Assembly (NCBI GenBank): GCA_900772475.1
Contig: CAAHEI010000085.1
Span: 3,125-67,124, forward strand
Length of the DNA stretch: 64,000 nucleotides
Direction of reading: 5' to 3'
From: Clostridia bacterium
GTDB lineage: Bacteria > Bacillota > Clostridia > TANB77 > CAG-465
Both the position numbers and the translations under genes were made by a program. The notes below the pieces were generated by a model. That model saw nothing but the letters and a program-made list of their open reading frames with translations, had not been told where the DNA came from and searched no databases. This document shows, piece after piece, positions 31,705-53,930 of this stretch. Position 1 is the stretch's first letter, and every line of letters begins with the position of its first letter.

Positions 31705-31726
31705 TATATCATCGCTCCATTCTACT

Positions 31727-33025: not shown

Positions 33026-33042
33026 ATTCCCTCCTTATTTTT

Positions 33043-33531
33043 TTATTGTCCCTCTATTTCAATTAAAGTTCCAACCTTATCTCCGGTCAAATGTTGGTTT
33101 TCTGTACATTCAATTTTAAATTTTTGATCTAACAATATGTTATTCATAACATATTTGTAACTTGCCTCATCATGATTAATATTAAATCTTGAGTATGTAG
33201 CTGAAGCTTTTGATTTATTTTCCTCATATACATTAATTACCCTCATTACCCTAATATTAACTTCCACATCATCTTTATCATAAAAATAATTAATAAGATT
33301 CTTAACATCTGCACCCGTAATATATGAATTTCCAGTAACATTTTCTGTTCCAGAAACCAAAAGATCTTGAATACTTTGTTCATAATTTGCAGCAAAATCT
33401 TGGCCACGCCCAACATTAGATGCCAACTGTTTTGCTGAGTTATAATACATTAAAACTGCTGAAATTGTAGCAACCGCAAGTAAAGTGCTTACACCTATTA
33501 CAATAGCTCTAATTGGAGCACTTTCGTCCAT
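33043..33531 (-). CDS. Small pilin-like protein (162 aa)
   Basis: The N-terminus is MDESAPIRA-IVIGVSTLLAVATISAVLMYY. A GAGGTGG SD lies 7 nt upstream. Confidence 0.45.
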   Translation of the reverse strand: MDESAPIRAIVIGVSTLLAVATISAVLMYYNSAKQLASNVGRGQDFAANYEQSIQDLLVSGTENVTGNSYITGADVKNLINYFYDKDDVEVNIRVMRVINVYEENKSKASATYSRFNINHDEASYKYVMNNILLDQKFKIECTENQHLTGDKVGTLIEIEGQ

Positions 33532-33648
33532 GATTTTACCACCTCACTTTTAATTTATATATATAATATACACTTTAAGAAATTAATTTACCTTGATTAT
33601 ACACATTTTCCACATTTAATTAATTTTTTAAACTATATATTAGTAGTA

Positions 33649-33686
33649 AAGGTATATAACTATATGTGTATATAATTATATACCTT
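33649..33686 (-). terminator. Stem-loop just downstream of the candidate major pilin gene; possibly a partial terminator or a stabiliser
   Basis: 11-bp perfect stem AAGGTATATAA / TTATATACCTT with a 16-nt loop, 13 nt after the stop. The T-tail on the minus strand is weak. Confidence 0.35.
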
Positions 33687-33698
33687 TAAAAAAAGTCT

Positions 33699-34085
33699 TT
33701 AATTCCACTCTATAGTAACAGTCCCTGCATCTATATTTTGTGTAACTGTTCCTGTATACATTTTGGTAGCTGTAGCTGAAGTTGCAGAATTAATGGCCGC
33801 TGTATCATTTTTTACTGCCCCATCAATCTTAATTGTAATACTAGATGCATCATCTCTATTTTTTAATTGAACAGCTGCTGTTCTAACTTGTGCACCTGAC
33901 ATTTTTTTACCATTATATTGTTCAAAAAGATCATTTTGTAAACTTGCAGATATACCATTTACTTGTGCTTGACCTTTATTAAGTAGGTTTTGACCCATAC
34001 CAGTTATTAACATTACGGCTGCAATTATAATGATTGTGATGAAAAGACCAACACCAATCATAATAGCTTTTTGTGCGTTATCCAT
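33699..34085 (-). CDS. Candidate major pilin (128 aa)
   Basis: The N-terminus is MDNAQKA-IMIGVGLFITIIIIAAVMLITG, followed by a small Ala/Thr/Gly-rich domain. This is the first and smallest pilin-like gene after the platform gene. It is flanked by longer intergenic spacers with stem-loops and has a strong SD (AAAGGGGGA). Confidence 0.5.
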   Translation of the reverse strand: MDNAQKAIMIGVGLFITIIIIAAVMLITGMGQNLLNKGQAQVNGISASLQNDLFEQYNGKKMSGAQVRTAAVQLKNRDDASSITIKIDGAVKNDTAAINSATSATATKMYTGTVTQNIDAGTVTIEWN

Positions 34086-34161
34086 AATTTATATATCCCC
34101 CTTTATACATATATATAATATCCACCTAAATGGTGTGATATCCAATTTAATTGTTGCCTTA

Positions 34162-36222: not shown

Positions 36223-36226
36223 ACTA

Positions 36227-38125: not shown

Positions 38126-38163
38126 ATTTTCACCCCTCTTATTTTTTATCTTCCATTTTTATT

Positions 38164-38979
38164 CTAATTTTCCCTAATCTTAGCCATTTCTACAATTTGA
38201 TTTGCAATATTTAAAGTCTGAAATATAAAATTTCCGTTATAATCTTTTGGATCTGCATTTATATTTTTGTATAAGAAATCAACAACAGCACCTGAATTGC
38301 ACGCGTCTGCAAACATGTAATTATGTGGTACAGTAAATATTGGATCTTTTACCCTATACTTCCATTTAATATTCATTACATTATATTTCGATGATTGCTC
38401 ATAATCTGCAATTACAATTATTTTTTTCTTATCTTTTAGAATTTCGTTTGTTGATATAATATTAAAGAAATCACTAAATTTTACAGTATCCTGATTTATA
38501 ACACACACAACAATTTCTGCATCAGATATTGTTTCTTTAATAGTTTTTTTACTAAAATTTTTAGGCATGTCTATAAAAACTAAATCATATATTTCGTCTG
38601 CTTTTCTTGTAACATATGGAAGATTGTTTATAATTTGATTATATCCATCAATATCATCAGCATTCATTCCATATAAGACGTCTAATCTATCTTTTAACAC
38701 TGGCTTAGCATAATTTTGTATAGAATCTGCAGTAAGTTTATTACTTGAAACAAGTCTAATCAAAGCATTTATTCCTATATTTGAACTTTCGAAGACTCCA
38801 CTTTGTTTAAGCTCGTCATATGGTGTAAAAGAAGATTCCATTTTACATGAATGAAAATTTGCTTGCATAAGTAAACTAGAAACTTTATGAGTCATCCCCA
38901 TTAATGTACTTACTGCAACTGCAGCATGAGTGTTTCCTGTCATACTTTCATATGGGCTCCAAAATACAACTCTTGACAT
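38164..38979 (-). CDS. ParA/MinD-fold (CpaE/TadZ-like) protein with a degenerate P-loop
   Basis: 271 aa. VVFWSPYESMTGNTHAAVAVSTLMG occupies the place of the xKGGxGKT P-loop. A Walker B-like segment, YDLVFIDMP, is retained. Confidence 0.45.
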   Translation of the reverse strand: MSRVVFWSPYESMTGNTHAAVAVSTLMGMTHKVSSLLMQANFHSCKMESSFTPYDELKQSGVFESSNIGINALIRLVSSNKLTADSIQNYAKPVLKDRLDVLYGMNADDIDGYNQIINNLPYVTRKADEIYDLVFIDMPKNFSKKTIKETISDAEIVVCVINQDTVKFSDFFNIISTNEILKDKKKIIVIADYEQSSKYNVMNIKWKYRVKDPIFTVPHNYMFADACNSGAVVDFLYKNINADPKDYNGNFIFQTLNIANQIVEMAKIREN

Positions 38980-38981
38980 TA

Positions 38982-39695
38982 TTACTTCCTCCTTTTTATT
39001 TGATTTAATACTTTTTTAGCATTAACATCTCCCATTATTTCTGCCGCAAGATCTGCAAGAATTGCCATATACAATTTAGAATGTTTTTTAGTTTCTATAC
39101 TTCCACTAAATTGCGAATCTATATCAGCAAGTCTATCTTGTTCGTCTAATGGAACTTCATAATCTGGTTCTTTCCATTTTACTTCATATTCCTTTATTTT
39201 TTGGTCAAAATAATCGTCTGCAGCCCTTGATATGTATGATTTATACAATACTTTTGTCATTACAAGTTCTGAATCACCTTCAGTATCAAATACTTTCATT
39301 GCCTTTATTATTTCCTTATTTTTCTCTATGGAAATAACACTAGTATCAATAAAAAAGTACTTCTTATCAACACCTTTAGTCCTAAATAATTCATAAGATC
39401 TAGCACTATCCATATCAATAATTACAAAGTCATATTTATTTATATCAACACCTTGTTCACCAGCGTAGCTTTCAACATCACGCATACTATCAAACCCAAC
39501 AGCAAAATCTATATCGCTATATTGAGTTATATATGCCCTGCCCATATTGCTTAGGGCAGGAACAATATATTTTAGTTTTCTATCTAGTGTTGCATCAACT
39601 ACTAGTACTGATTTATCCATTACATTAATTGCTTTTGCAAGATTCATAGCAAAGTCGTATTTATCAACATATCCAATTAATCCAATTACTTGCAT
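38982..39695 (-). CDS. ParA/MinD-fold (CpaE/TadZ-like) protein with a degenerate P-loop
   Basis: 237 aa. VIGLIGYVDKYDFAMNLAKAI occupies the place of the P-loop. SVLVVDAT and YDFVIIDMD are retained. Confidence 0.45.
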   Translation of the reverse strand: MQVIGLIGYVDKYDFAMNLAKAINVMDKSVLVVDATLDRKLKYIVPALSNMGRAYITQYSDIDFAVGFDSMRDVESYAGEQGVDINKYDFVIIDMDSARSYELFRTKGVDKKYFFIDTSVISIEKNKEIIKAMKVFDTEGDSELVMTKVLYKSYISRAADDYFDQKIKEYEVKWKEPDYEVPLDEQDRLADIDSQFSGSIETKKHSKLYMAILADLAAEIMGDVNAKKVLNQIKRRK

Positions 39696-39745
39696 TTAAT
39701 TTCCTCCTTGTATAAATAATCTTGTATAAAATTTTAAATTGTTTT

Positions 39746-40783
39746 TTATTCTTCAGTAGTTCCATTTAATAAAGCTGTTCTTTGATTTTGTTGAGTTGTT
39801 ATAGAAGTTTGTGCTCCACTAACTATATTACTATAATTATCTTCGTTATCAGATTTGTAACTACTTAATCCACTTTCAATTGTTCTTCTTGAATCTTCAC
39901 TTAATTTTTCTTTTGCTTGTGATAGAATATTTTCATTTGTTTTCATAAGATTCATAACTTGTGAATTTGGTTGGTAATTTTCTGAAACTCTAGTTGCTGC
40001 TGAAGCAAAGTTTTTATATTTTACAATTAAATCAAACATTTTCTCTGTAAACTCATCAGCATCTGCATCCTGTAAAGTATCTAGTTCTTTTTCAATTTCT
40101 TCAGAAACATATCCTTTAGCAGTTGTAGTTGCTTCTTCTGATAAATTTGTTTGTGATGTAGCATCTGTATATTTCGTTGCATATAATTTTGAACCTTGAT
40201 TTAAATATGAATCAACTGTTGCACTGCTAAGTAACAATCTTTCATCTTCAGCCATATTTATCCAAAATGTTTTTCCAACAATATTTTCAACTTTCTTTTG
40301 AGCTAAAACAACATAGTCAGTACCATTAGGAAACATTATTCTTATGTCAACATAATCTCCAATATTAAGATCAGTTGGCATAAGTACTGTATTTATTTCT
40401 TGAGATCTAACATCAGCCGCCACAATTTCAGATGTAACCATTGAATTTAGAACTGGTACATTAGCTGCAATATTATATTTTGCTACGCTTCCAACTATCT
40501 CATCTGTAGATTTTGCCGCACCATTTGGCACTGTGTTCTTATTTATATTTTTTGCAACTGTTACCATGTCATTTGTTATGACCTCACCTTGAATTATATC
40601 TCTTTTACATACAACAACATCCTGTGTGTATTTTTGATTATATCCTTTATTCACACCTTTTTCATAGCTCTTAATTGTACTAATAGACCACCATAATGTA
40701 AGTCCAATTCCAACAACACCAATGACGGCACCAATAACAATACCCTGCATCATTTTCCTCTTAATTTGACTCATTCCTATCAT
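39746..40783 (-). CDS. CpaB/RcpC-like pilus assembly protein (TM anchor plus SAF domain)
   Basis: The most plausible start is the ATG at 40781-40783, 9 nt after GGAGG; the ORF track extends to 40915. After a TM helix, the segment VVVCKRDIIQGEVITNDMVTV is SAF-like. It is followed by a beta-rich domain and an acidic/polar tail. Confidence 0.6.
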   Translation of the reverse strand: MIGMSQIKRKMMQGIVIGAVIGVVGIGLTLWWSISTIKSYEKGVNKGYNQKYTQDVVVCKRDIIQGEVITNDMVTVAKNINKNTVPNGAAKSTDEIVGSVAKYNIAANVPVLNSMVTSEIVAADVRSQEINTVLMPTDLNIGDYVDIRIMFPNGTDYVVLAQKKVENIVGKTFWINMAEDERLLLSSATVDSYLNQGSKLYATKYTDATSQTNLSEEATTTAKGYVSEEIEKELDTLQDADADEFTEKMFDLIVKYKNFASAATRVSENYQPNSQVMNLMKTNENILSQAKEKLSEDSRRTIESGLSSYKSDNEDNYSNIVSGAQTSITTQQNQRTALLNGTTEE

Positions 40784-40843
40784 ATGTTTCAACCTCCAAA
40801 TTATCTTTTTTACGTTATAATTAAAATATAACCTATCGTATCT

Positions 40844-40881
40844 AGTATATATTTTTATATAAAAAAAATCAACACGTTGAT
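40844..40881 (-). promoter_or_regulatory. Candidate promoter of the pilus-like operon, with a palindrome overlapping the -35
   Basis: The minus strand reads TTGATT (40867-40872), a 17-nt spacer, then TATACT (40844-40849). The perfect 6-2-6 palindrome ATCAACACGTTGAT (40868-40881) overlaps the -35. Confidence 0.4.
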
Positions 40882-40995
40882 AAAAAAATACATTTAAGAC
40901 ATTAAAATGAAACATATTTGAAATATAAATGAAATTATTATGAAACTTACATTTTTTTTAAACGTTTATTTCGACATTTATTTGCAAAAAACAGC

Positions 40996-41014: not shown

Positions 41015-41033
41015 ACCTTTACAATTTTGTAAA

Positions 41034-41825
41034 CTAACCTTTCTTTATTAAATAATATCCTAAAACCTCCTTAATATATGTTAATAAATCTGATTTAGAT
41101 GCATCTTTTGAAATTATAAGTTTACTCTCTGCAATCTTTTCATTTGTATCTTTATTAAATATTTCAATATTTCCTACTTCATCTCCATTAGAAAGAGGAG
41201 CTATTAAGTTATCATTATATGTTATCTTTTCAACCGTATCTATTTTTGCACCTTTATCAGAAAGAATTGTTACATCATCCTTTATTGCTACCTCAAAACT
41301 TTCATTTACACATTTATTAACATTTATACTACTTGTCACAACTCCCTTTTCACAAACATTTTTTACTTCATAATTTGCAAAACCAAAATCTAAAAGTTGT
41401 TTTACTTCTTCAAGTCTTACAGCACTTGATGGTGCTCTCATTACAACAGCTATAAAAGAAGTCCCATTTCTTGTAGCAGTTCCTGATAAATTAAACAACG
41501 CTTGTGAAGTTGAACCAGTTTTAAGTCCCGTTGCACCCTCATAAAAACGAATTAGCTTATTTGTACTATTTAAGCCAAACGTTCCATCTCTTAAAGTATC
41601 TTGCCAAATAGATGTATATTTTAAAATATCAGGATGTTTTGTTATAAGTTCTCTTGACATTATTGCAATATCTTTAGCTGTTGTATAATGTCCTTCTTCA
41701 TCTATTCCATGTGAATTTTTAAAACAAGTATTTTCCATTCCAAGCTCTTTTGCCTTATCATTCATCATTTTAACAAAATTTTCTTCACTTCCACCAATTT
41801 TTTCGGCCATAGCAACAGTAACATC
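41034..41825 (-). pseudogene. 3' portion of a split D-alanyl-D-alanine carboxypeptidase gene (S11, PBP5/DacF-like)
   Basis: The frame is open from just after a TAG at 41841-41843 and reads KFTHRDVTVAMAEKIGGSEENFVKMMNDKAKELGM...GLKTGSTS (KTG motif), then the PBP5 C-terminal beta domain. It lacks the SxxK and SxN motifs, which are found 9.6 kb away. Confidence 0.85.
41814..41825. repeat. 12-bp direct repeat AACAGTAACATC, left copy (att core)
   Basis: The identical 12-mer occurs at 51439-51450. In both copies it encodes D-V-T-V in the carboxypeptidase reading frame. Confidence 0.85.
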
Positions 41826-41860
41826 TCTATGTGTGAATTTCTAGCATGAAAAAAATCTAA

Positions 41861-43390
41861 TTAAATAAACTTAAATTTATAATTTATTACAATTTCATTT
41901 TTAGAAATTAATATATTATAAATAAGTTTTTCTATCAATTCTTCTTTTATATTATTATTTATTATATTATTTTCTTGTTGTATATTTTTTTTCAACTCTA
42001 ATATATTTTCTTCATTTATATTAGACTTTAAATCATTATATTTATTTATTTCATTTTGTATATTATCTCTTTTTTCTTTTAATATTTTAGTATCTTTTAA
42101 GTAGTCTTCATCATTTATTAGATTATCAAGTTTTTTCATATATAACGAATCTATATTATCATTAACTCTATTGTAATCATAATTTAACTTCTTTAATTTT
42201 TCATCTATATTTTTTAGATAGTCTTTATTTTTCTTTAATATGATATCATCTTCTGCACTTACTAAATCAAACAGTTTTTTATAATGTCCTTTTATATTAT
42301 TAATTATTTCTTTTTCTAATTTAAAATAATTATAATAATATTTCCCGCAGCAATTCATATCTGATTTTGGGCAATTAATTGTTACAACTTTATCACTTCT
42401 TACATTAAAATTTAATTTTCTTCCACACTTTGCACAACGCATATATGGTCTAAATAAATAATTGTGTACTTTTACATTTGTCGTTTTTCTCTTACTATTT
42501 AATATCTCATGTACTTTTTCAAAATTACATTTATCAATAATAGGTTCATGTGTATTTTTAGTAATTATCCATTCGTCTTTATTAGTTTGCCTTTTTTTCT
42601 TTTCTCTATATGAAACTTTATTAACAACATTTCTTACTGTATTGCCTATATACACCTGATTTTTCAAAATTCTCAAAATTTGTGTACGTTTCCAAATACC
42701 ATACATATTTGTTTTCTTATTTGGTGTAATATGATAATATTCTGCAGGTGTTTTGATCTTTTTTGAATTTAAGTATTTAGCAATATACTGTGAACTTTTT
42801 CCGTCTATATACATATTATAAATTTTCTTAACAATTCTACTTGAATTCTTATCAACTACTAATTTACCTTTATTATTTGGATCTTTTTTATAACCGTAAG
42901 GTGCATATGTTCCCATATACAAACCTTTTTCCATATTACTTCTTTTACTTTTTTTCAATTTATCAGAAACATCTTTAGCAAATTTTTGGTTGTTATATAA
43001 CTTAAATTCTATAAGTACATTGGCTAAACTATCCAAATAAGTATCTATATTATCAAGCACTGCAATAAATCTTACATCATGTTCAGGAAAAAATTTTTCT
43101 ATATATTCTGATGCCTCTACACTTTCCCTTGCAAATCTAGATAGATCTTTGACTATTATAGTATCTATTTTTTTTAACTTAACATCTGATATCATTTCTT
43201 TAAATTTAGGTCTATTAAAATTAGTTCCACTATATCCATCATCAACATATTCTTTATTAATTTTAATTCCTATATCTTCTGCATATCTTTTTAAAAGTTT
43301 TCTTTGATTAGAAATACTTTCACTCTCTGCCTTATCACCATCATCTTTTGATAACCTCATATATATACATACATTATTAAAGAAGTCCAC
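41861..43390 (-). CDS. Large serine recombinase
   Basis: 509 aa. Resolvase catalytic N-terminus CIYMRLSKDDGDKAESESISNQR, a recombinase domain, a zinc ribbon (CAKCGRKL...CPKSDMNCC) and a long coiled-coil C-terminus. Confidence 0.9.
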   Translation of the reverse strand: MDFFNNVCIYMRLSKDDGDKAESESISNQRKLLKRYAEDIGIKINKEYVDDGYSGTNFNRPKFKEMISDVKLKKIDTIIVKDLSRFARESVEASEYIEKFFPEHDVRFIAVLDNIDTYLDSLANVLIEFKLYNNQKFAKDVSDKLKKSKRSNMEKGLYMGTYAPYGYKKDPNNKGKLVVDKNSSRIVKKIYNMYIDGKSSQYIAKYLNSKKIKTPAEYYHITPNKKTNMYGIWKRTQILRILKNQVYIGNTVRNVVNKVSYREKKKRQTNKDEWIITKNTHEPIIDKCNFEKVHEILNSKRKTTNVKVHNYLFRPYMRCAKCGRKLNFNVRSDKVVTINCPKSDMNCCGKYYYNYFKLEKEIINNIKGHYKKLFDLVSAEDDIILKKNKDYLKNIDEKLKKLNYDYNRVNDNIDSLYMKKLDNLINDEDYLKDTKILKEKRDNIQNEINKYNDLKSNINEENILELKKNIQQENNIINNNIKEELIEKLIYNILISKNEIVINYKFKFI

Positions 43391-44975
43391 TAACTACATT
43401 CAACTCCTTAAAATTAAACATTATTTCTATATTTTTTTCCTTATTTATATATATATTATCAATTAATAATGTTAAATCATCCTTTTTTAATATAGTTGAT
43501 TTCAATATGTGTTTTACAGTTTTCTTTAATTCTTCATCTTGTAATATTTTATTATTATCTATATTATAATTTTGTCCCTCTACCTTTGTTTGAGTTAATG
43601 TTTTTTCTAATTCTTCTCTCTTTTTTATCAAAATATTATATATTCTATCATAGTCAATATTATCAATAATGCCATCTAATTTATCAAGATAAGCTTTATC
43701 TATTTTATCATTAATACCTTTTATATCTAATTCTATTTTATCTATTTTTTGGTTATAAAGGTTTATTTTTGCATTAATCATTGTAGAATATTTTTCTTTT
43801 ATCTTAGTAAAATCAATTTTGCTAAGATATTTTTTCATAACTTTTTTTATTTCTTCTATAATTACTTTTTCTATTTCATCATAATTAATATATGTTACAC
43901 TACACTTTTCATTACCAACTCTTGGTTTACTAGCTGATGAACACATACAATATCTTCTAATAGTTACTTTATCTTTATACTTATCTTTTTTTGTTATAAT
44001 GGCTAATTTTCTACCACATTCTTTACATACCAATAAACCTTTTAAAAGGTAATTATGCTTATTTACTTTGCTCGATTTATTATTGCTTAATAATTTTTGT
44101 ACTTTTTCAAAATTGCATTTATCAATAATAGGTTCATGTGTATTTTTGTTAATTATCCATTCATCTTCTGGTGTATTTATTATTTTTTTACTTTTGTAGT
44201 TTATCTTCTTTGTTTTTCCTTGAACAGAATCTCCAACATACACTTCTTTTGAAAGCATCCTTCTTATTGTTTCAGGATTCCATTTATTACTAATAGTTGT
44301 AACATTTTTTCTTGAAACAGCCGGAGGTGGAGTTCCATCATTATTCAACTTTTTAGTTATTTGATATGTTCCCATACCACTTAAGTACATTTTAAAAATA
44401 TCTTTGACTATTCTACTTTCCATTTCATCAATAATCAAGTGTCCTTTTTTGTTAGGATCTTTTTTATAACCATAAGGAGCTTCTACTGATATATACATAC
44501 CATCTTTCTTCTTATTATATAACATAGCTCTAAATTTCCTAGATGTATCTTTACAATATAGGTCATTCATAACTGCTCTAAGTGGTAACATATCATCAGT
44601 TTCTGTGATTGTATCAATTTCATCATATATAGCAATAAACCTAATATTATTTTCAGGAAAATATCTTTCTATATATCTTCCCACTTCTGAATAATCTCTA
44701 CCTAATCTTGATAAATCCTTTACTATGACCATATTTATATTCTTTTTTTCAATATCTTCTTTCATTTTATTAAGCCCCGGTCTATCAAATTTTAATCCTG
44801 AAACACCGTCATCTATATATTCATTACATATTTTTAATCCGTTTTCCAAACAAAATCTATTTAATATAGTTCTTTGATTGGAAATACTTTCACTTTCTAC
44901 CTTATCACCATCTTCCTTTGATAATCTAAAATATAATCCTACTTTATAATCTTTGTTATTTTTATAGATATTCAA
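43377..44975 (-). CDS. Large serine recombinase, second of a tandem pair
   Basis: 532 aa. VGLYFRLSKEDGDKVESESISNQR, a zinc ribbon (CKECGRKL...CMCS) and a coiled-coil tail. It overlaps the downstream recombinase gene by 14 nt. Confidence 0.9.
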   Translation of the reverse strand: MNIYKNNKDYKVGLYFRLSKEDGDKVESESISNQRTILNRFCLENGLKICNEYIDDGVSGLKFDRPGLNKMKEDIEKKNINMVIVKDLSRLGRDYSEVGRYIERYFPENNIRFIAIYDEIDTITETDDMLPLRAVMNDLYCKDTSRKFRAMLYNKKKDGMYISVEAPYGYKKDPNKKGHLIIDEMESRIVKDIFKMYLSGMGTYQITKKLNNDGTPPPAVSRKNVTTISNKWNPETIRRMLSKEVYVGDSVQGKTKKINYKSKKIINTPEDEWIINKNTHEPIIDKCNFEKVQKLLSNNKSSKVNKHNYLLKGLLVCKECGRKLAIITKKDKYKDKVTIRRYCMCSSASKPRVGNEKCSVTYINYDEIEKVIIEEIKKVMKKYLSKIDFTKIKEKYSTMINAKINLYNQKIDKIELDIKGINDKIDKAYLDKLDGIIDNIDYDRIYNILIKKREELEKTLTQTKVEGQNYNIDNNKILQDEELKKTVKHILKSTILKKDDLTLLIDNIYINKEKNIEIMFNFKELNVVSGLL

Positions 44976-45038
44976 TCCATACCACTCCTAACAAAGCTAT
45001 TTATCATACATAATAATATACAAATTCAATAATTAATG

Positions 45039-45140
45039 TCAATCCCTTTCAAAAATTCTTTCCATAATAAACTCCTCAATTATTTCTTGAAAAGTTTTAC
45101 CTCCATTATTAAACTTACAAATTATATTTATATTCTCCAT
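45039..45140 (-). CDS. Possible 33-aa ORF upstream of the recombinase pair
   Basis: A GAGGGGG SD lies 5 nt before the ATG. The product is MENINIICKFNNGGKTFQEIIEEFIMERIFERD. There is no family assignment, and the ORF is short enough to be spurious. Confidence 0.25.
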   Translation of the reverse strand: MENINIICKFNNGGKTFQEIIEEFIMERIFERD

Positions 45141-45179
45141 AGCTACCCCCTCATTTAATATTATTAAAATATTAATCCT

Positions 45180-46055
45180 TTAGAACTTTTCTTCTTCTCT
45201 TTTCTTTAATTCTTCATATGCAACCTTTCCATAATCTACAAATTCATTTTTCTTCTCTGAGGATAATGAATTTATAGTATCTGGAAGTACTGGCAGCCTC
45301 TCCTTTGTTGTTTTACCAAAGTTTCCTGTTGCAAGTGATGGATCTATATCTTCAGTTATTTGAAGAGCAATTATAAGAGCTTTACTGGTTTCTCTTGTCA
45401 TACTACCATCAGTAGGTATGAACCCTATATAAGGTTCATACCTATTATTCAATCTCTGTTGAATTGTTCTTATATCATCAATCCCACCCGAAACTTTTTT
45501 TGACTGTTTCATACTCAACAAAAACTTCATAACATTTAAAGTAACCGTAGAGCTATCACTAGAAATGCCAAGATCTCTCTTTAAAGCTTTTACCGCATTA
45601 CCAGTACCATCGTAAAAATGTTTAGTTATGCTACTTGAACCTGTAGAATATCCCTTTGTCCATAATGCACACTGAATAATTCCATACACTTTATCTTCTT
45701 CTGTTGATGGGTATTCTTGCTGAACTATACCATTTTTATAAGTTGATTTAAACAGTGATTCTGTTCCTTGACCAAAATTATCAGCAGTATTAACTATGCC
45801 AAGCCGAATTTGTAATGCCCTTATACAACCATTTACTGTTGCTCTTCTGCTAGTTCCATCCTCTGGTACACTACCAAAAGCACTATTAGAAGAAAAGTTT
45901 TCATTTAACCATTGTTGGCTTTTTAAAAGCATTGAATCTACACTTCTAGCACTAGAGGTAGTATCGGCAGCGAAAGCTACTATATTACTACAAACTAACA
46001 TGGTTACAACTAACATAGTTGAGAGTATAACTTTAAAATATTTATTTTTTAGCAT
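45180..46055 (-). CDS. Secreted protein with repeated peptidoglycan-binding-like helical modules
   Basis: 291 aa with a signal peptide ending FAADT. It has three repeats of the type WLN...G..T....I.ALQI.LGI...DG.FG..T, as seen at the N-terminus of clostridial wall hydrolases. Confidence 0.45.
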   Translation of the reverse strand: MLKNKYFKVILSTMLVVTMLVCSNIVAFAADTTSSARSVDSMLLKSQQWLNENFSSNSAFGSVPEDGTSRRATVNGCIRALQIRLGIVNTADNFGQGTESLFKSTYKNGIVQQEYPSTEEDKVYGIIQCALWTKGYSTGSSSITKHFYDGTGNAVKALKRDLGISSDSSTVTLNVMKFLLSMKQSKKVSGGIDDIRTIQQRLNNRYEPYIGFIPTDGSMTRETSKALIIALQITEDIDPSLATGNFGKTTKERLPVLPDTINSLSSEKKNEFVDYGKVAYEELKKREEEKF

Positions 46056-46280
46056 TATTATTCCTCCTGAAGTTATAAAATATTTTTACTTGTTATTACT
46101 TTAAAAATCTGGTGACCGTATGTGCTCCATAATTAGGATCCTCCTTTATAAATGTTAATTAACACTTAATAAATATTTAGTGTGATATACATTATACATC
46201 ACTACACATTAGAAATGAACAAAAGTGGAAAAAGATAGAAAAAAGTAGAAAGTTTATATAACAATATTCTACCGTTTTTA

Positions 46281-46308
46281 TTGTATAATTAATAAAATAT
46301 GTTATAAT
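46281..46308 (+). promoter_or_regulatory. Candidate extended -10 promoter for the only plus-strand gene
   Basis: TTGTAT (46281-46286), a 16-nt spacer, then TGtTATAAT (46300-46308). It is 17 nt upstream of the ATG at 46326. Confidence 0.45.
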
Positions 46309-46325
46309 TATAAAGGGTGTATAAA

Positions 46326-47408
46326 ATGAAAAAATCATATATTATCATATTAATATTAATAATAACTATTTCATTGGTAATCCTATTTACAAAATTATTA
46401 ATCATACCTAATTTAATGTATAACAAGGACTTAAAACAAGACAAAGAGAATAAAGAGCAAAATTCAGAAGAATTAACTAAAGTAATAAGCCAGTACAACA
46501 ATCCAGTTATACCTGATGGATTTAAAAAAGTAGAAACTGATAATGCTAGTTGGAACTTAGACGAACAAGGAAATCCCAAAGGTTGGAATGATGGATTGGT
46601 TATTGAAGATGAAAAAGGAAATCAATTTGTTTGGGTACCATGTACTATAGATGGAATTAATAATACAGTAAAATATAGTAGATATATAGTTAATAATAAA
46701 GATTTAATGCCTGTTACAGATAATAAATTATACGATAATATACTTAATCAAAATAAAGCCTGTTATTTTGTAGAATCAGATCAAATAAATAATGAAATTT
46801 ATAAAAGTATAGAAAAAAATCAGGGATTTTATATAGGGAGATTTGAAACAGGAATTGAAAATGGTGATTTGCTACCTCTAACCAATGATTATACAAGCGA
46901 TTCATTTACTTTATGGCAAAACGGAACTCCTATAATAAAAGCAAACTGTAAAGTTTGGAACTATATAACTAGATATAAAGCCGAAGAAATTTCAAAAGAT
47001 TTTTATAATTCTAATAATGTACAAAGTAGCCTTATAACTTCCTTTTGTTTTGATACAGCATTAAAATGGATAAGTAATAGCATTCCTGACTTTTGTATTA
47101 ATAGTCAAAATTACGGTAATTATAACGATATAAAAAAAGATGATTCAGGGCATATACTTACTGGCACTGATAAAAAATATATGTATAAAAATATTTATGA
47201 TATGGCTGGAAATATGAGAGAATTTACCACAGAAATTTATATTGATAATAGAACTTCTACTCAATTAAACGTTTTAAGAGAAAATCACGGTCATGTATTT
47301 GGTATTACCAATATTCAAGATAAAAAAAGCTGCATTTCAAGATTAGCATTACCTAAAGAATGGTATAATATATCATGTTCTTTTAGAATTGTTCTATTTA
47401 TTAAATAA
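46326..47408 (+). CDS. Membrane-anchored protein with a formylglycine-generating-enzyme (SUMF1/C-type-lectin-like) fold signature
   Basis: The start is the ATG at 46326; the ORF track starts at the GTG at 46317. It has an N-terminal TM helix. The motifs GNQFVWVP, GFYIGRFE, KVWNYIT and YDMAGNMREFTTE resemble the FGE-sulfatase family pattern (GN.WEWT). This is recognition from memory only. Confidence 0.4.
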   Translation: MKKSYIIILILIITISLVILFTKLLIIPNLMYNKDLKQDKENKEQNSEELTKVISQYNNPVIPDGFKKVETDNASWNLDEQGNPKGWNDGLVIEDEKGNQFVWVPCTIDGINNTVKYSRYIVNNKDLMPVTDNKLYDNILNQNKACYFVESDQINNEIYKSIEKNQGFYIGRFETGIENGDLLPLTNDYTSDSFTLWQNGTPIIKANCKVWNYITRYKAEEISKDFYNSNNVQSSLITSFCFDTALKWISNSIPDFCINSQNYGNYNDIKKDDSGHILTGTDKKYMYKNIYDMAGNMREFTTEIYIDNRTSTQLNVLRENHGHVFGITNIQDKKSCISRLALPKEWYNISCSFRIVLFIK

Positions 47409-47444
47409 TTTATGGGGTGTCAAAACTTGACACCCCTTTCTTAA

Positions 47445-48605
47445 TTATGCAAAAGTATCTATATAAATTGATACTTTTGCATTTAAATATCTTGGATCCA
47501 TTTCACCATACAAACCTGCATCTGCACAAAAATACTTAAATCTATAAATACTTTCAGTACTAGTATCCATCAAATCTGATTCATATTCATAAATATTGTA
47601 ATGTCTTTCTTCTCTCCAAACAGTTCCTATTCCTTTCTTTTCTAAATTTACGTCTAAATGTGGCATAATACTCGTTCCATCAAGGCTCTCCCATACAACT
47701 CTATATTTCATTTTTTTAGCATTTACTCTAAACCACTCTCCAGTATTTTCTTTGAAAAATTGAACATCCCCAAAATGATAATTTGTTACATTAGCAGGTA
47801 TTACTCTAGTTTGCATATCTATAAATGATACCACTGGAAATCTATTAGAATAAGACACTTTATCTATATCCCAAGAGCCACTAGCCGTTGTTACAGAATA
47901 TTCATGAAATTGATCCAAATTCCAATTATTTGGAATTTTAAATCCCATATTACCAGAATATCCTGTAGACATATCGCTTACAAAACAAGTTTCTGCATAT
48001 CCTGCTCCCATAACTTTTGTACAGGCATTTCTTGTTCCATAAATTCCTACTTTGTACTGACCTATAGCACTATTTATTCCGTTAAAATAAGGAATAACGT
48101 ATGACGAAATCTCGGAATCTATTGGGTCAAAATCAATTGCAAAATAAATTATTGTACCACTTGGTATTCCTAACTCCATTGCTCTATTTACAGCTTTATT
48201 AGCATCAGATACTCCCAAATTATAATTATACTTACTTACAGTATCTGTATAGAGTGTTTCTTGGAATATCGGAAAGAATGAGAGTCCATTATCTAATATT
48301 CTTTTCGGCTCATCATCTTTTAAGCCTTTAGATGATCCGGTTAAATATCTTCCTACAACAGTATAACCATTTGATTTAAGATAATCAAGCCTTTCTTGTG
48401 TCATTTCAAATCTTGTATCACAAGCCGTACAACTTCTATCAGGATTTCCTTTACTAAGTAAAAGTGCCATCCAAGTATCTACATTCATAGTACCTGTCTG
48501 TTCAATATTTAGATCAGCCTGAAAGCTCTTTACAACATTTGAAAGACTAGTATTCCATTGTACATTAGACAAATTAATACTATCTCCATAACCATTACAA
48601 CACAA
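47445..48605 (-). CDS. DUF1906 (Rv2525c-like glycoside-hydrolase-like) domain protein, apparently lacking a signal peptide and N-terminal repeats
   Basis: 386 aa. One residual PG-binding-like repeat (VVKSFQADLNIEQTGTMNVDTWMALL) is followed by the TIM-barrel-like region GYTVVGRYLTG...FFPIFQE...IYFAIDFD. The protein starts abruptly with MCCNGYGD. Confidence 0.55.
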   Translation of the reverse strand: MCCNGYGDSINLSNVQWNTSLSNVVKSFQADLNIEQTGTMNVDTWMALLLSKGNPDRSCTACDTRFEMTQERLDYLKSNGYTVVGRYLTGSSKGLKDDEPKRILDNGLSFFPIFQETLYTDTVSKYNYNLGVSDANKAVNRAMELGIPSGTIIYFAIDFDPIDSEISSYVIPYFNGINSAIGQYKVGIYGTRNACTKVMGAGYAETCFVSDMSTGYSGNMGFKIPNNWNLDQFHEYSVTTASGSWDIDKVSYSNRFPVVSFIDMQTRVIPANVTNYHFGDVQFFKENTGEWFRVNAKKMKYRVVWESLDGTSIMPHLDVNLEKKGIGTVWREERHYNIYEYESDLMDTSTESIYRFKYFCADAGLYGEMDPRYLNAKVSIYIDTFA

Positions 48606-48642
48606 ACAATATTGTACTAACTTAATACATTTTTTATATGTT

Positions 48643-49254
48643 TCATATTGCCCTTATTTCGATTTTTTGCTCTTCAGGGTTAAATAATCCGTTAGCCCTA
48701 CCTAAACTGCTTTTAAAGTTGATTTTTATTCCACTTATTTTTTCTAATGTTGATATAATTTTGTCCTTATTTGTAACCTTTTCATTGCTTTCTTTTTTTA
48801 ATTCATACTTATCTCTATCAGCATTTGTTTGAGAAATATCAAATACTCTACCTACTTTAAATGTAGTTCTTTCTGTTTTCCCTTTTTCTATTTTTTCTCC
48901 ATTTTCATCTAAAGCAACTCTTCCTTTATCATCCATTTGATATTCTACAAAAACTTGTTTTACAGGACAAAATATTTTTATTCCTTTCTCATTTTTATTA
49001 ATTTTTACCCCATCTTTTTTCCAGTCAGTAAAGGACTTTACAAGTGTAGCATTTTCATTTTGTAGTGATATAAGTAAAAAGTTGGTAAAACTATAATTGT
49101 GACATCTACTCATTATATTAAGAAAACTTTTATATCTTTCAGAATTTAAAGCATCTTTTATTCCTTGATTTAGTGTATTCTTTAATTCTTCTCTTTCTTT
49201 ATCTTTTATTTTTTTATATTCTTCTGTACTATATTTGTTTTCCACATTTTCCAC
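48643..49254 (-). CDS. ArdC-like N-terminal ssDNA-binding domain protein
   Basis: 203 aa. YKSFLNIMSRCHNYSFTNFLLISLQNENATLVKSFTDWKKDGVKINKNEKGIKIFCPV matches the ArdC-N/DUF1738 pattern. Confidence 0.65.
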   Translation of the reverse strand: MENVENKYSTEEYKKIKDKEREELKNTLNQGIKDALNSERYKSFLNIMSRCHNYSFTNFLLISLQNENATLVKSFTDWKKDGVKINKNEKGIKIFCPVKQVFVEYQMDDKGRVALDENGEKIEKGKTERTTFKVGRVFDISQTNADRDKYELKKESNEKVTNKDKIISTLEKISGIKINFKSSLGRANGLFNPEEQKIEIRAI

Positions 49255-49257
49255 CTC

Positions 49258-49743
49258 CTACATCTCAATTTCATTCTCTTTATTTTTTATATGTTTTAAA
49301 CTATAATCTAATTTATTTGTTTTTCCTTGATTTTTTATACTCACATAAGAATTTTCCGTTACTATAATGTGATCTACAAGTTGAATATTAAACATTTTTA
49401 ATAGTTCCTCTACATTACTTGTAAATTTTGTATCTTGTGCACTTGGCTCTAAAGTATTTGAAGGATGATTATGTACTAATATAACTCTATCATTAGCATT
49501 TATTATTGCTTTTCTAACAATATATTTTGCATCTATCTCTATACTACTGGAACCACCTATTCCTAAAATATCTATATTTCGTATATGATTGCCCCTATCA
49601 AGCCCTATATACATTAAATGCTCTTGTATTGCATCTTTAATTTCTTGGATTTCTTTTAATTGGTATACATTCTTAGGACAAATAATTTTTCTTGCATTCT
49701 GTTCATTAATCAATTTAGGTTTCTTAGTTACTTGATAATTCAT
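49258..49743 (-). CDS. RadC-like JAB/MPN domain protein
   Basis: 161 aa. VILVHNHPSNTLEPSAQDTKFT is the JAMM motif H-x-H-P-S-x(n)-S-xx-D. Confidence 0.8.
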   Translation of the reverse strand: MNYQVTKKPKLINEQNARKIICPKNVYQLKEIQEIKDAIQEHLMYIGLDRGNHIRNIDILGIGGSSSIEIDAKYIVRKAIINANDRVILVHNHPSNTLEPSAQDTKFTSNVEELLKMFNIQLVDHIIVTENSYVSIKNQGKTNKLDYSLKHIKNKENEIEM

Positions 49744-50093
49744 AGTTCGCTTTCTAAGTCTTTTTCTAAGTATTTAAAACTTCTATTTTGAATATCCCTT
49801 TTTATTTTTCTAATATCTTCATCAACTAATGAACTAAATTCTCCTTCCTCACTCTCCTTTACAAAGAAGCAATTTCCGGCAATAAAATCATTTCCTAAAA
49901 TCAAATTTGGTAATAAATTATTTATTTTCCCCTCTTCATTACATATTAGCAGTACATTATCTTTATAATTTACTACTTCAATTAATCCATCTACTAACTT
50001 TTGCATAGTCTTTAAATCATTTTTTATCTCCATAACTTTTGGATCTTTATTAACTTTTTTATATATAATTTTTAAAGTATTCTCCTTTTTCAC
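49740..50093 (-). CDS. DUF3846-like protein
   Basis: 117 aa. The pattern MEIKNDLKTMQKLVDGLIEVVNYKDNVLLICNEEGKINNLPPN-type, and the genomic association with RadC/ArdC in Firmicute mobile elements, both fit this family. Confidence 0.5.
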   Translation of the reverse strand: MKKENTLKIIYKKVNKDPKVMEIKNDLKTMQKLVDGLIEVVNYKDNVLLICNEEGKINNLLPNLILGNDFIAGNCFFVKESEEGEFSSLVDEDIRKIKRDIQNRSFKYLEKDLESEL

Positions 50094-50095
50094 AT

Positions 50096-50518
50096 CTATA
50101 CCTCCAATACTCTTTTAAATACAAACCATTCTAATAAAAAGTTTGGAATAGAATCATATACAATTCCTATGCAAGCATCTTCTTTAAAGTATACAAATAC
50201 TCTCGCTCCTTTTAAATTTTTGCTTAAATGATAAGTTCTATAATCTTCTAAAAAAGATTCTGCTTTTTGACAAAAATAAAACTCAGCCATTTGGTACAAT
50301 TCCTTAGCTGAATTTATAAATTGTTTCTTATATTTTTCTTTAGTAATAATTGGTATTCCATTACGACTATATTTTTCTACAAACTTTCTAAATAGTTCCT
50401 CCACTTTTTGTTTTCTTAACATACGGACATTTTCTCCTATTGTAAGATAATCAGTTAGCATATTGTCTAAATCATATTCACTATATTTATTTCCTTTTAT
50501 CTCTGCTGTAATTATCAA
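50096..50518 (-). CDS. Hypothetical protein (140 aa)
   Basis: The ORF is tightly packed between the RepA_N and DUF3846 genes. No family was recognised. Confidence 0.4.
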   Translation of the reverse strand: MIITAEIKGNKYSEYDLDNMLTDYLTIGENVRMLRKQKVEELFRKFVEKYSRNGIPIITKEKYKKQFINSAKELYQMAEFYFCQKAESFLEDYRTYHLSKNLKGARVFVYFKEDACIGIVYDSIPNFLLEWFVFKRVLEV

Positions 50519-51352
50519 TTAATCCCCTCCTATGTCATAAAAATTTTCTAAATCATTATATTCTCTTTGAGTGTAACTTTTATATCTATTGCTACTTTTT
50601 TTAGAAACACCTTCAAGTTCTCTTTTTTCATCTCTTTCAACTTTAGCTACTACCCAATTTAATATTGCATTATAATCACTAGCATACACTTTACCACTAG
50701 ACTTTTTATATAAATCTAATGCTACAATTATTTTAGCTGTTTTCTCATTACCATATTGCTCTACCAAATTATTTAGCTCTTCCAATTTTAGAGAAACTCT
50801 ATCTGCAAAAAAAATTTTTTCTTGCCCATTAGAAATATTTAAATTAGTATTATTTATATCAGTATTATTAGAGTTCTCTTTTAGACTTCTAGAAATTCTA
50901 TTTAGAACTTCTTGAAGTTCTTCTTTTGAACTTCTGAAAGTTCTATCCTTAAATTTTTCTAAATCTTCTGATTGCATTTTACCTATATAAATTCTATTTG
51001 CAAGCCCTTGTCCTAGTCTTTCTTCCTTTATAAGATTGCATTTTTTCAATTCATTAAATACTTTTGAAGCAGTTGCTCTAGATATTTTTAATTCATTTAT
51101 AAGTTCTTGTCTTGTATAAATCAAATATATCTCTCCATTTTCATTAAACCATTTATTTATTCTTGAAAGTTCTAATCTATCAAGCAATAATGTATATGTT
51201 ACCTTTGCTTCTAAAGATAATTTATCTTTATATAATGTACTTCTAAATAATTCTTTTGGCATTTGATAAAACCTGTATGTTAGTGTTTCATTTATCTTAA
51301 ATAAATCTAATTTTTCTTCATATTCACTACTCATACAACTCCTTTCAAGCAA
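50519..51352 (-). CDS. Replication initiator protein A (RepA_N family)
   Basis: 277 aa. YRFYQMPKELF...LSLEAKVTYTLLLDRLELSRINKWFNENGEIYLIYTRQELINELKISRATASKVFNELKK is the Firmicute RepA_N winged-helix signature. Confidence 0.75.
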   Translation of the reverse strand: MLERSCMSSEYEEKLDLFKINETLTYRFYQMPKELFRSTLYKDKLSLEAKVTYTLLLDRLELSRINKWFNENGEIYLIYTRQELINELKISRATASKVFNELKKCNLIKEERLGQGLANRIYIGKMQSEDLEKFKDRTFRSSKEELQEVLNRISRSLKENSNNTDINNTNLNISNGQEKIFFADRVSLKLEELNNLVEQYGNEKTAKIIVALDLYKKSSGKVYASDYNAILNWVVAKVERDEKRELEGVSKKSSNRYKSYTQREYNDLENFYDIGGD

Positions 51353-51438
51353 AAAAATAATGAAAATTATATTCTTTATATAATTTTCATTTATGATAAA
51401 TAGCTTATTTTCAATATTTTTCTTTCCTGCTAAAATTT

Positions 51439-51450
51439 AACAGTAACATC
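51439..51450. repeat. 12-bp direct repeat AACAGTAACATC, right copy (att core)
   Basis: Identical to 41814-41825. Confidence 0.85.
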
Positions 51451-51892
51451 ATTTGCAGAAACTACACATATAGCTTTTAAAGCTTCATCTACAGTCAGCT
51501 CTTCATTTTCTTTAAACCATATTTGTGAACCTCCCATTTTAGATGCTTTAGTACTGCATTTTACTTTATCTTGATAAGTCATTTTTCCGTGAATCTATTT
51601 GTTCCATTGTAAGAAGCATAGTCATAACTTTAGTTACAGACGCAGGTAATAACTTTTCATTCTCATTATTGGCATAAAGGATTTTTCCAGTTGTAGGCTC
51701 CATAAGTACCTGAGCTTCAGACTGAAAATTGAACTCAGGAGAGGATGCAAGTGTGCTTATACTACTTATCTTTGTTTCTTTATTTTTATTTACAGGATAT
51801 GTATATGTTGCTGCACTAACTGTTGTAAATATAACCATTAAAAAGTATGTAATCAAAAAGCTTATTTGTATTTTCTTTTTCAAATTAACCAC
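51439..51892 (-). pseudogene. 5' portion of the split D-alanyl-D-alanine carboxypeptidase gene, itself carrying a 1-nt frameshift
   Basis: The probable start is TTG at 51881-51883, after GAGGTGG. It has a signal peptide and the SxxK motif (LPASVTKVMTMLL). The frame ends at the TAA at 51566-51568, but the next frame continues ...KMTYQDKVKCSTKASKMGGSQIWFKENEELTVDEALKAICVVSANDVTV (SxN motif) up to the att core. Confidence 0.85.
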
Positions 51893-51940
51893 CTCAAAAA
51901 AAATCGAATAATATAACTATTACATTATATTATTCGACAT
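51871..51940 (-). repeat. Copy A of an ~68-bp module (terminator hairpin, T-run, SD, first codons) at the dac 5' end
   Basis: About 88% identical to 52908-52976. It contains the hairpin TCGAATAATATAA-n8-TTATATTATTCGA (51904-51937) followed on the minus strand by T8 and then GAGGTGGTTAATTTG. Confidence 0.75.
51896..51937 (-). terminator. Rho-independent terminator immediately upstream of the dac ribosome-binding site
   Basis: 13-bp perfect stem, 8-nt loop, and a T8 run on the minus strand (51896-51903). Confidence 0.7.
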
Positions 51941-52150
51941 TTATTTTATGAATGATAATTTTTAACGAACAAATTGTTAATACAAGCTATCCTATTTAAT
52001 AATATTTAGTTTGTATTTATCACGCCTATACCATTAACAGTGATATAACTGTATAACTTTTATTTTCCAATCCTTTTTCGTAAGCAAACTTATCTCCTAT
52101 TAATGCCATATCTTTTTTGTATTCTAATATCTCTAATACTTAATTATCTA

Positions 52151-53151: not shown

Positions 53152-53538
53152 TCATTTTTTATTATTTTTTGTCTTGTACATCTTTTTTAAACTAGAAAAT
53201 ATTTCATATATACCAAGTAATACCATAAACAAGTAAAAACAATTTTTTAAAATTTTTTCATCAATTATTTTTAACAAAAAAATTCCAGTTATACTTCCAA
53301 TGCTAACGGGAATAACAAGTTTTAAAAGATTTTTAACATCAATATTCTTCTTTTTAATATTATAAATAGTAGTAACTATCCCTACTACAATAAACATTAT
53401 CAAATTATATCCCTGTGCCTCCTTATGCTCTAAAATGTTAAAAATTGTTGTAAGTAGTATAAAAATACTACCTCCACCAATTCCCATTCCAGCAATTATT
53501 GTGCTAATTATTGATATTAAAATAAAACCTATATTCAA
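53152..53538 (-). CDS. TauE/SafE (TSUP) family transporter, half-size subunit
   Basis: 128 aa with four predicted TM helices and the GMGIGGGSIFILL motif. Confidence 0.65.
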   Translation of the reverse strand: MNIGFILISIISTIIAGMGIGGGSIFILLTTIFNILEHKEAQGYNLIMFIVVGIVTTIYNIKKKNIDVKNLLKLVIPVSIGSITGIFLLKIIDEKILKNCFYLFMVLLGIYEIFSSLKKMYKTKNNKK

Positions 53539-53540
53539 AT

Positions 53541-53930
53541 TTACACGCCTCTTTCTTGAAAAAATTTAAATACTGTAAGAATAACAAGTAATATACCAGA
53601 AATTAAGTTTAAAACATTTGCAGGAATTTTCTTCATAACTTTTGTTCCAATAATTCCTGATATACAAGCAATAACAATAAGTGGTGTAATTATTTTGTAA
53701 TCAAAATTTATCACATTTCTATATCCAAAAATAGCAAACATGCTTGAAACTGAAAGTACAGCTACACTTAAAGCCCTTACTTTGTGTGTCTCTAATTTTA
53801 AAAAATATATTAAATAGAATACTAAAACCTGTCCTGAACCAGCAGCAAACATACAATTTAAAACTCCCACGAAAAATCCTACTAAATAAATCATATTTTT
53901 ATTATTTGTAAAAAAAAAGAAAACATGCAA
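53541..53930 (-). CDS. TauE/SafE (TSUP) family transporter, half-size subunit
   Basis: The ORF is 129 aa; a more plausible start is MIYLVGFF at 53894. It has four TM helices and the motif AAGSGQVLVFYL. The stop is 2 nt from the next half-size gene. Confidence 0.6.
   Translation of the reverse strand: MHVFFFFTNNKNMIYLVGFFVGVLNCMFAAGSGQVLVFYLIYFLKLETHKVRALSVAVLSVSSMFAIFGYRNVINFDYKIITPLIVIACISGIIGTKVMKKIPANVLNLISGILLVILTVFKFFQERGV

Follow-up and report, generated by a model that had tools for sequence, protein, structure and literature searches.

A site-specific serine-recombinase island in the active-site codons of a DacF/PBP5-type carboxypeptidase gene of gut Clostridia

The stretch of DNA analysed here, 64,000 nucleotides from a Clostridia bacterium of the CAG-465 lineage (referred to as the window), carries a D-Ala-D-Ala carboxypeptidase gene, dac, which is split by an insert encoding two large serine recombinases (LSRs). 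The question raised by this locus is whether the insert is a developmental element, cut out during sporulation to rebuild the gene, or a mobile element for which dac is the landing site. The original prediction preferred developmental excision and kept simple insertional inactivation as its fallback. Our results indicate that the 9,625-bp insert is probably an active, mobile and site-specific LSR island that recombines conservatively, splits dac, and reverses the knockout upon excision. LSR islands as such are already known; what is new is the target, the SxN codons of dac, together with the tandem-LSR module and the presence of another island at the SxxK codons.

Junctions and empty sites

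Two copies of the 12-mer AACAGTAACATC, and no more, are present in the window (41814-41825 and 51439-51450), where 100 shuffles gave an expectation of zero. The shared 12-mer first claimed for both junctions is thus a unique pair in the window. The two copies are 9613 bp apart, as originally stated, and removal of this interval together with one copy takes out 9625 bp. The copy on the recombinase side (41814..41825; attR in the orientation of the gene) reads GATGTTACTGTT on the coding strand, and the copy at the 5' junction (51439..51450; attL) was located by the 12-mer search. Above 51439, the 5' part of dac ends with ...ICVVSANDVTV and then runs into KF and a stop codon in the insert. Below 41825, the minus strand reads DVTVAMAEKIGGSEENF...KTG... 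up to the stop at 41034. The stop codons reported immediately inside the element were found two codons in (KF-stop) at one junction and five codons in at the other.

At the level of sequence, natural empty sites in the same species prove this junction. The 307-aa open reading frame (ORF) predicted by joining the window fragments at DVTV was found residue for residue in the protein collection (P0121), on at least nine contigs. When excised in silico, the window aligned with the empty-site contigs of its species as one colinear block, 99.3-99.6% identical over 6.9 kb. The empty junction reads GCAAATGATGTTACTGTTGCTATGGC, and the comparison with uninterrupted relatives proposed in the original prediction therefore returned exactly the predicted attB. 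Empty-site contigs (L106-L113) have the same neighbours as the window, among them a TED-SpaA adhesin gene, two TauE ORFs, a histidine phosphatase gene, dac and a SAF-domain gene. The interrupted form was at least as common as the empty form: the exact 258-aa ORF of the 3' part was present on at least 17 contigs, each time with the recombinases alongside, and 371 contigs carry the exact 50-aa junction ORF. Among the samples listed, those with the empty form and those with the occupied form did not overlap; carrier samples include ERZ28621585, ERZ4560047 and SRR1761719.

The related island of a rabbit-gut metagenome-assembled genome (L021) narrowed down the exchange point. Its two junction copies are unlike each other (GATGTGTATGTT and GATGTTACAGTT) and differ outside GATGT, which therefore confines the crossover to these five bases; the crossover dinucleotide within them is probably GA. 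As recombination is presumably conservative, with a 2-bp crossover in GATGT, the gene is split cleanly and would be restored exactly by excision. The arrangement fits LSR-type recombination between short att sites, in which only the shared core is duplicated. The attB site, of about 40 bp or less, lies within the SxN-coding stretch in the context ...GCAAAT GA TGTTACTGTTGC..., and the junction sequences are TGCAAATGATGTTACTGTTAAATTTTAGCAGG for attL, CACATAGAGATGTTACTGTTGCTATGGCC for attR, TGCAAATGATGTTACTGTTGCTATGGCC for attB and, as reconstructed, CACATAGAGATGTTACTGTTAAATTTTAGCAGG for attP.

On the element side, arm P (41826..41860), between the core and the nearest recombinase stop codon, is identical in Clostridium sp. 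CAG:465 (L012) and partly conserved in L021. Arm P' (51364..51438), which adjoins the 5' junction, is nearly identical in L021 although the elements are only about 73% identical elsewhere, and this arm of about 75 bp is for that reason probably a recombinase binding site. The imperfect inverted repeats reported at the element ends proved weak. In the reconstructed attP, dyad symmetry was strongest around the GA that opens the 12-mer, with matches at 15 of 24 positions, a value reached by 84 of 500 shuffles. The best attB dyad matched at 11 of 24, reached by 442 of 500; neither is significant.

The recombinase module, its cargo and its movement

The recombinase genes rec509 (41861..43390, minus strand) and rec532 (43377..44975, minus strand) overlap by 14 bp, and their products are about 40% identical. 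They share an RLSK(E/D)D catalytic motif, which reads YMRLSKDDG in rec509, where it holds the presumed catalytic Ser, and YFRLSKED in rec532. The N-terminal resolvase domain of LSRs (PF00239) was detected in rec509 (E = 3e-23) and rec532 (E = 1e-24), as was the C-terminal recombinase domain PF07508. The zinc-ribbon domain (PF13408, Zn_ribbon_recom) was found only in rec532, and rec509 has Cys pairs with no significant Zn_ribbon match. The two proteins also matched the phrog_95 integrases at 329 and 339 bits. These domain matches, and the distance of 35 bp between the rec509 stop codon and the left 12-mer copy, bear out the earlier description of two recombinase genes at this distance from the junction. 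The two recombinases presumably act together.

In front of the recombinase operon stands a sigma-A-like promoter, TTGACA-16-TATATT (45013..45042, minus strand; 11/12, the best match in the region). The pattern TTGAC(A/T)-16/17-TATAT(T/C) and the leader GATAAATAGCTTTGTTAGGAG are conserved in five elements despite recombinase identities of only 60-79%. Directly upstream of the promoter lies a 33-aa ORF (MENINIICKFNNGGKTFQEIIEEFIMERIFERD; 45039..45140, minus strand), which has no Pfam match and is conserved as a peptide (..F.n.G.TFQEIIE..) in L021, L089, L091, L092 and L115; it is a candidate accessory or directionality factor. An AT-rich palindrome (TTAATATTTTAATAATATTAA) precedes this ORF.

The cargo lies on the minus strand, with one exception. 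It comprises a secreted PG_binding_1 protein (45180..46055; phrog_15213, profile positions 1-220), an Rv2525c-like, endolysin-like glycoside hydrolase (47445..48605), an ArdC-N anti-restriction-like protein (48643..49254), a RadC-like JAB domain protein (49258..49743), a DUF3846 protein (49740..50093), a 140-aa protein without a family match (50096..50518), and a RepA_N/DnaD-like replication initiator (50519..51352). These assignments came from domain searches, joined by PHROGs for the hydrolase, the ArdC-N protein and the initiator. The sole element gene on the opposite strand (46317..47408, plus strand) encodes a protein with an N-terminal membrane or signal segment and is followed by a terminator-like hairpin (47414-47436). 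RepA_N, ArdC-N, RadC and DUF3846 are typical accessory genes of integrative and conjugative elements or plasmids. The GC content of the element is 25.8%, against 27.1% for the whole window.

The PG_binding and hydrolase ORFs match consecutive parts of phrog_15213 (1-220 and 239-508) and form one fused 658-aa gene in other island variants. In the window they are separate, in swapped order, on either side of the opposite-strand ORF, and L090 has two such modules. As judged from these sequences, the cargo has evidently been rearranged and duplicated.

A prophage or defective prophage was considered and rejected. No structural, packaging or lysis modules of phages were present among the element ORFs, for which PHROGs returned only integrase, endolysin-like, DnaD-like, anti-restriction and RadC families. 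A scan of IMG/VR with rec509 found relatives of only 26-28% identity and none close, and therefore no phage link. ARAGORN detected neither a tRNA nor a tmRNA, so a tRNA gene is not the target of the island, and an Rfam scan of the whole window at gathering thresholds returned nothing.

The module is site-specific. On all 23 contigs that were read, the exact rec509 protein adjoined the 3' part of dac, with no other target. The same recombinase pair occupies the same dac codon in L012, L021 and L086-L090, whose Dac proteins are 61-92% identical to that of the window. In L012 and the human-gut contigs L086-L088 and L090, the recombinases are 99-100% and Dac about 92% identical to those of the window; in L089 the values are 77-79% and 61%. 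L086 corresponds to contig QRFC01000014.1. The L021 island is only 6.6 kb long, with recombinases of 59-64% and Dac of 77-82% identity. The cargo differs between copies, with NUDIX and AAA_14/DUF4143 genes in L021. One variant has the fused 658-aa PG_binding/hydrolase gene and, upstream of the recombinases, small HTH_3 and Sigma70_r4 genes, which we take to resemble the regulatory module of Tn916/Tn5397.

Movement between hosts could be read from the flanks. A comparison of the window with L012 showed 99-100% identity over about 3.4 kb of the recombinase module, a gradual fall through 98, 97, 94 and 89% along the 3' part of dac to 80-86% in the downstream host genes, and an abrupt end of similarity on the cargo side. 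An identical rec509 is present in two host species whose 3.3-kb downstream flanks are 16.5% divergent, and within the species of the window, at no more than 0.6% divergence, occupied and empty sites are interleaved in the flank clustering. This demonstrates recent interspecies transfer as well as repeated gain or loss.

According to the explanation that we favour, the island would be a non-phage integrative element, with cargo like that of conjugative or mobilizable elements, whose tandem pair rec532 and rec509 recognises as attB the stretch of a DacF/PBP5-type gene that encodes SxN. Present in roughly half of the contigs of the species, it would have been gained and lost repeatedly, exchanging its cargo around a constant recombinase/att module and crossing recently between species. 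Its integration would knock out a dispensable gene that is nevertheless under selection, and its own excision would undo the knockout. The carboxypeptidase is presumably not made while the island is in place. With natural attB, attL and attR sites from many genomes, this well-defined LSR system would be useful for work on recombinase specificity and for the study of mobile elements in uncultured gut Clostridia.

The closest analogues are Tn5397 with TndX and SCC with CcrAB. TndX is an LSR that directs Tn5397 to the coding sequence of a conserved Fic domain, with GA as the central dinucleotide (PMC4430133). The island likewise lies in conserved domain-coding DNA, the SxN stretch, and its attP dyad is centred on GA. 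It shares with Tn5397 and with Tn4451/Tn4453 (TnpX) the LSR-only, conservative movement of a non-phage clostridial element, in a comparison of features rather than of sequences. The island differs from all three in its two tandem recombinases instead of one, in its target, and in having no conjugation, mobilization or resistance genes.

SCC resembles the island in its tandem LSR pair (CcrA/CcrB), in its single fixed site within a conserved chromosomal gene, and as a non-phage island whose cargo is variable and modular while the recombinase/att module stays constant. SCC is inserted at the 3' end of rlmH, which remains active, whereas the island splits the catalytic domain of its target gene. 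The NCBIfam models for CcrB, CcrA and CcrC scored only 60-132 bits against cut-offs of 700-900; the island recombinases are therefore not Ccr orthologues. The best NCBIfam match of rec509 was XisF, the LSR that excises the fdxN element from a gene in the terminally differentiated heterocysts of Anabaena. At 100 bits, far below the cut-off of 375, rec509 is not an XisF equivalog, and XisF belongs to a different phylum and a different developmental programme.

The surroundings of the island are mosaic in identity, as seen for 41030-45254 against L012 and 51439-51963 against L001. The 5' part of dac is 98.7% identical to that of L001, the 3' part 91.8%, and the downstream genes 79-88%, which suggests frequent homologous exchange across the locus. 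In L091 (3340-3440), a homologous recombinase pair is followed by just 16 dac codons (DVTVAMAEHIAGNEEN) and then by unrelated DNA. This is either a fossil attR whose host gene has been lost or an island that has moved elsewhere with a piece of its target.

A conserved frameshift in the host gene

The 3' part of dac (41034..41825, minus strand; codons ~145-407, called as a 258-aa ORF from a Met at 41810) starts DVTVAMAEKIGG and carries KTG, as first described, followed by PBP5_C. The 5' part (51439..51892, minus strand) contains the signal peptide, SVTK and ...VVSANDVTV, also as described. These do not lie in a single frame: the signal peptide and SVTK are in frame -1, up to Ser98, and the sequence from Gly99 to DVTV is in frame -2, with the break at 51589. 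As the window stands, the motifs of the enzyme are spread over three frames or segments. After repair and rejoining, the protein has SVTK, SAN and KTG and matches PBP5 and DacB structures in the Protein Data Bank, as expected of a PBP5/DacF-type carboxypeptidase with Peptidase_S11 and PBP5_C domains and a signal peptide. The continuous PBP5-type sequence that excision had been predicted to yield was not obtained, since a +1 shift is still needed. Owing to this frameshift, precise excision rebuilds the SxN motif without producing a single open frame.

The frameshift site, at codon 99, is TCA CGG (51587..51592, minus strand; ATAGATTCACGGAAAAATG), with the extra C at 51589 in the local sequence GAT TCA C GGA AAA ATG. 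The 0 frame reads ...MEQIDS and then RKNDLSR-stop, while the +1 frame continues GGA AAA ATG as GKMTYQDK...SANDVTV, so that the predicted trans-frame peptide is ...LLTMEQIDSGKMTYQDK.... Every contig of the species, whether its site is empty or occupied, has the extra C, as do L001, L006 (UMGS1761), the L002/L134/L136/L139 clade, the contigs L134-L141, L022, and the distant L015 and L024 (about 70% identical). It is absent from L005, L021 and L007. The consensus is GAT TCN C GGN AAR: the preceding Ser codon varies (TCA, TCT, TCG), the 0-frame codon is always CGG, and the 0-frame stop follows 1 to 8 codons past the site. CGG is the joint-rarest sense codon of the host, with 2 of 15,698 codons.

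A frameshift of this kind, together with the truncated remnant in L091, might mark dac as a dead pseudogene in which the island landed by chance as inert junk. The selection analysis has already largely refuted this reading, which is hardly credible. In the frameshift-bearing lineages, the ratio of nonsynonymous to synonymous substitution rates (dN/dS) is 0.03-0.25 on either side of the site, at synonymous divergences (dS) from 0.14 to more than 1, and neither half of dac has an internal stop in 11 lineages. The frameshift is, moreover, common to hundreds of contigs from several species, and the recombinase genes are both intact, at about 99.5% identity between species.

Because the frameshift is common to lineages of only ~70% identity and both halves are under purifying selection, its simplest reading is a programmed +1 ribosomal frameshift at the rare and slowly decoded CGG codon, as these sequences suggest. 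Other readings were considered. A homopolymer sequencing error was rejected, as the extra C is not in a run and recurs across independent assemblies and species. CGG as an unassigned codon was rejected, as it occurs in frame in three other genuine ORFs. Two separate polypeptides are unlikely, as a signal peptide would be missing from the C-terminal one and no start codon is available for it in L024.

The dac site resembles prfB (CUU UGA C), antizyme (UCC UGA U) and rare-codon 'hungry' sites in its conserved single extra base, in its slow A-site codon, CGG, after a Ser codon, and in the purifying selection on both frames. It differs from prfB and antizyme in that the slow codon is a sense codon instead of a stop, and from the known +1 sites in that re-pairing of the P-site tRNA (UCA to CAC) is impossible and no stimulatory element was identified for the predicted shift. 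The conserved frameshift is the most unexpected feature of the locus and, if confirmed, would be a rare case of programmed +1 frameshifting in bacteria outside prfB.

A second island and the timing of excision

A 5.3-kb island interrupts dac at a different point, ACAAAAGTTATGACT, which encodes TKVMT of the SxxK motif, in the related species of L002-L004, L022, L134 and L135 (737-5966 in L002 and 2656-7966 in L134). It encodes CYTH and guanylate kinase proteins, the products of two genes of unknown function, a 51-aa ORF, and an LSR of 569 aa sharing about 27% identity with rec532. This island is polymorphic as well, being missing from L136-L141, and the L002 and L134 copies are 87-98% identical. 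The active-site-coding stretches of dac (SxxK and SxN) are thus a recurrent landing pad for unrelated islands.

Several observations weigh against the explanation that we favour. Two unrelated LSR islands in one dac gene recall the way in which sporulation genes attract intervening elements. L002 and L134, which both carry an island in dac, differ by a dS of about 0.45 with a dN/dS of about 0.10 in both halves, and both halves are stop-free in every carrier examined except L091. Such purifying selection is easier to explain if a working gene is regained at some stage, which raises the question of whether and when carriers recover the enzyme. With regard to the transfer route, a survey of the window element (10 ORFs) and of the inspected variants found no relaxase, oriT or transfer genes, and no excised circle (attP junction) was found in any assembly, as judged from the contexts of exact rec509 on 23 contigs.

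One way of regaining the gene would be a reversible on/off switch outside sporulation, comparable to 'active lysogeny' of the comK prophage in Listeria, in which a stress or host signal excises the island and the island later re-integrates. Gain and loss within the species are precise and apparently frequent, the RepA_N initiator could maintain an excised circle, and, since every element gene but one points the same way as dac, the dac promoter could read into the element. Given the missing circular form, and with no regulator tied to a signal, we consider this switch very improbable.

The other way is the developmental excision preferred in the original prediction, in which the island would be cut out only in the mother cell, rebuilding dac for cortex maturation while the spore genome keeps the island. 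In structure, the locus does resemble the sporulation gene-intervening elements skin/sigK, SPbeta/spsM, gin/gerE, vfbin/spoVFB, vrin/spoVR and yin/yabG, which are LSR elements in coding sequences of endospore formers whose precise excision restores the ORF. Excision of the island from dac would be just as precise, dac is under purifying selection in carriers, two independent LSR islands share it as a target, and the conserved small ORF stands beside the recombinases, where directionality factors often sit. The precedents include an element in gerE, gin, which is likewise non-phage (PMC5595907, PMC4191935, PMC5025042).

The host also appears to form endospores, judging from its genes alone. A yunB gene lies beside a SipL-like gene with SPOCS and LysM domains (3276-5508), and GerA is found next to dac in relatives; these genes point to endospore machinery in an uncultured, CAG:465-like gut organism. 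Literature searches on sporulation in CAG-465/TANB77 found nothing specific.

The evidence on expression leans the other way. The known systems interrupt genes that the mother cell expresses, and their excision in the course of sporulation is established, whereas the host gene of the island is DacF-like, which points to a forespore or vegetative type. The closest Bacillus relative of Dac is DacF, a forespore protein encoded directly upstream of spoIIAA-spoIIAB-sigF (43% identity, 290 bits), against 137 bits for the mother-cell DacB of B. subtilis (3mfd). In C. difficile, both sporulation-induced DD-carboxypeptidases are forespore-controlled, under sigma-F or sigma-G, and deletion of dacB in the wild type left the sporulation frequency unchanged (PMC3789822, PMC13344953). 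Excision in the forespore would strip the island from the germ line.

The promoters do not suggest mother-cell timing either. Upstream of dac, a promoter-like block, TTCATA-17-TATAAT(GTAATA) (51924..51952, minus strand), includes AATATAATGTAATA, which does not vary among 11 orthologues with protein identities as low as about 57%. The sole invariant block in these orthologues is T(G/T)CATA-17-TATAATGTAATA, with a TATAAT -10 and not the CATA-type -10 of sigma-E/K. Comparison with the sigma-E, F, G and K consensus singled out no class in this genome of 27% GC. The recombinase promoter is sigma-A-like in five diverged islands, and the search of the element for sigma-E/K promoters or a directionality factor, as the original prediction had suggested, found no promoter of this type and no recognizable factor.

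The island itself is demonstrably mobile between hosts, polymorphic and recently transferred instead of fixed; the interrupted gene appears to have been lost in L091; and literature searches found no intervening element in dacB, dacF or any carboxypeptidase gene. In all, developmental excision is unlikely, and as the preferred reading it went unsupported in view of the mobile island, the sigma-A-type promoter and the DacF-like host gene. The former fallback, simple insertional inactivation, is closer to the evidence and at the same time too simple given the strong purifying selection on dac.

A combined form, in which dac would need both excision of an LSR island in a terminal cell, timed by sporulation and with two LSR families co-opted as timing switches, and a programmed +1 shift at CGG, appears quite improbable. 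If true, dac would open a new class of developmentally rearranged genes, as the first one known to need recoding at both the DNA and the translation level.

Further observations concern the surroundings of dac. Directly upstream of its ribosome-binding site, a perfect palindrome with 13-bp arms (TCGAATAATATAA-N8-TTATATTATTCGA; 51905-51937, minus strand) is followed by T8 and overlaps the conserved TATAATGTAATA block. L008 and L013 have similar palindromes with different arm sequences, and the other orthologues have none. The palindrome may serve as an operator or form a terminator-like leader. No consensus structure was found across the orthologues, and the idea of a conserved attenuator or riboswitch was therefore dropped.

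About 1.3 kb upstream of dac, a TauE/DUF81 gene is present as two adjacent half-size ORFs (53152-53930, minus strand), which match profile positions 3-113 and 129-235 and are split in strains of the same species too. In C. difficile, the adjacent DUF81 pair CD0793-CD0792 is among the sigma-G-controlled genes (PMC3789822), and by analogy the pair is a weak hint of a forespore-type neighbourhood.

Immediately downstream of dac, all relatives share a cluster (28488-40915, minus strand) that encodes a SAF/CpaB-like protein, a 632-aa P-loop ATPase with weak TadA-like similarity, a 693-aa protein and two others of unknown function, as well as several small ORFs. This cluster may be a Tad-like pilus or secretion locus. 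In related contigs, a dockerin-domain gene is located further downstream.

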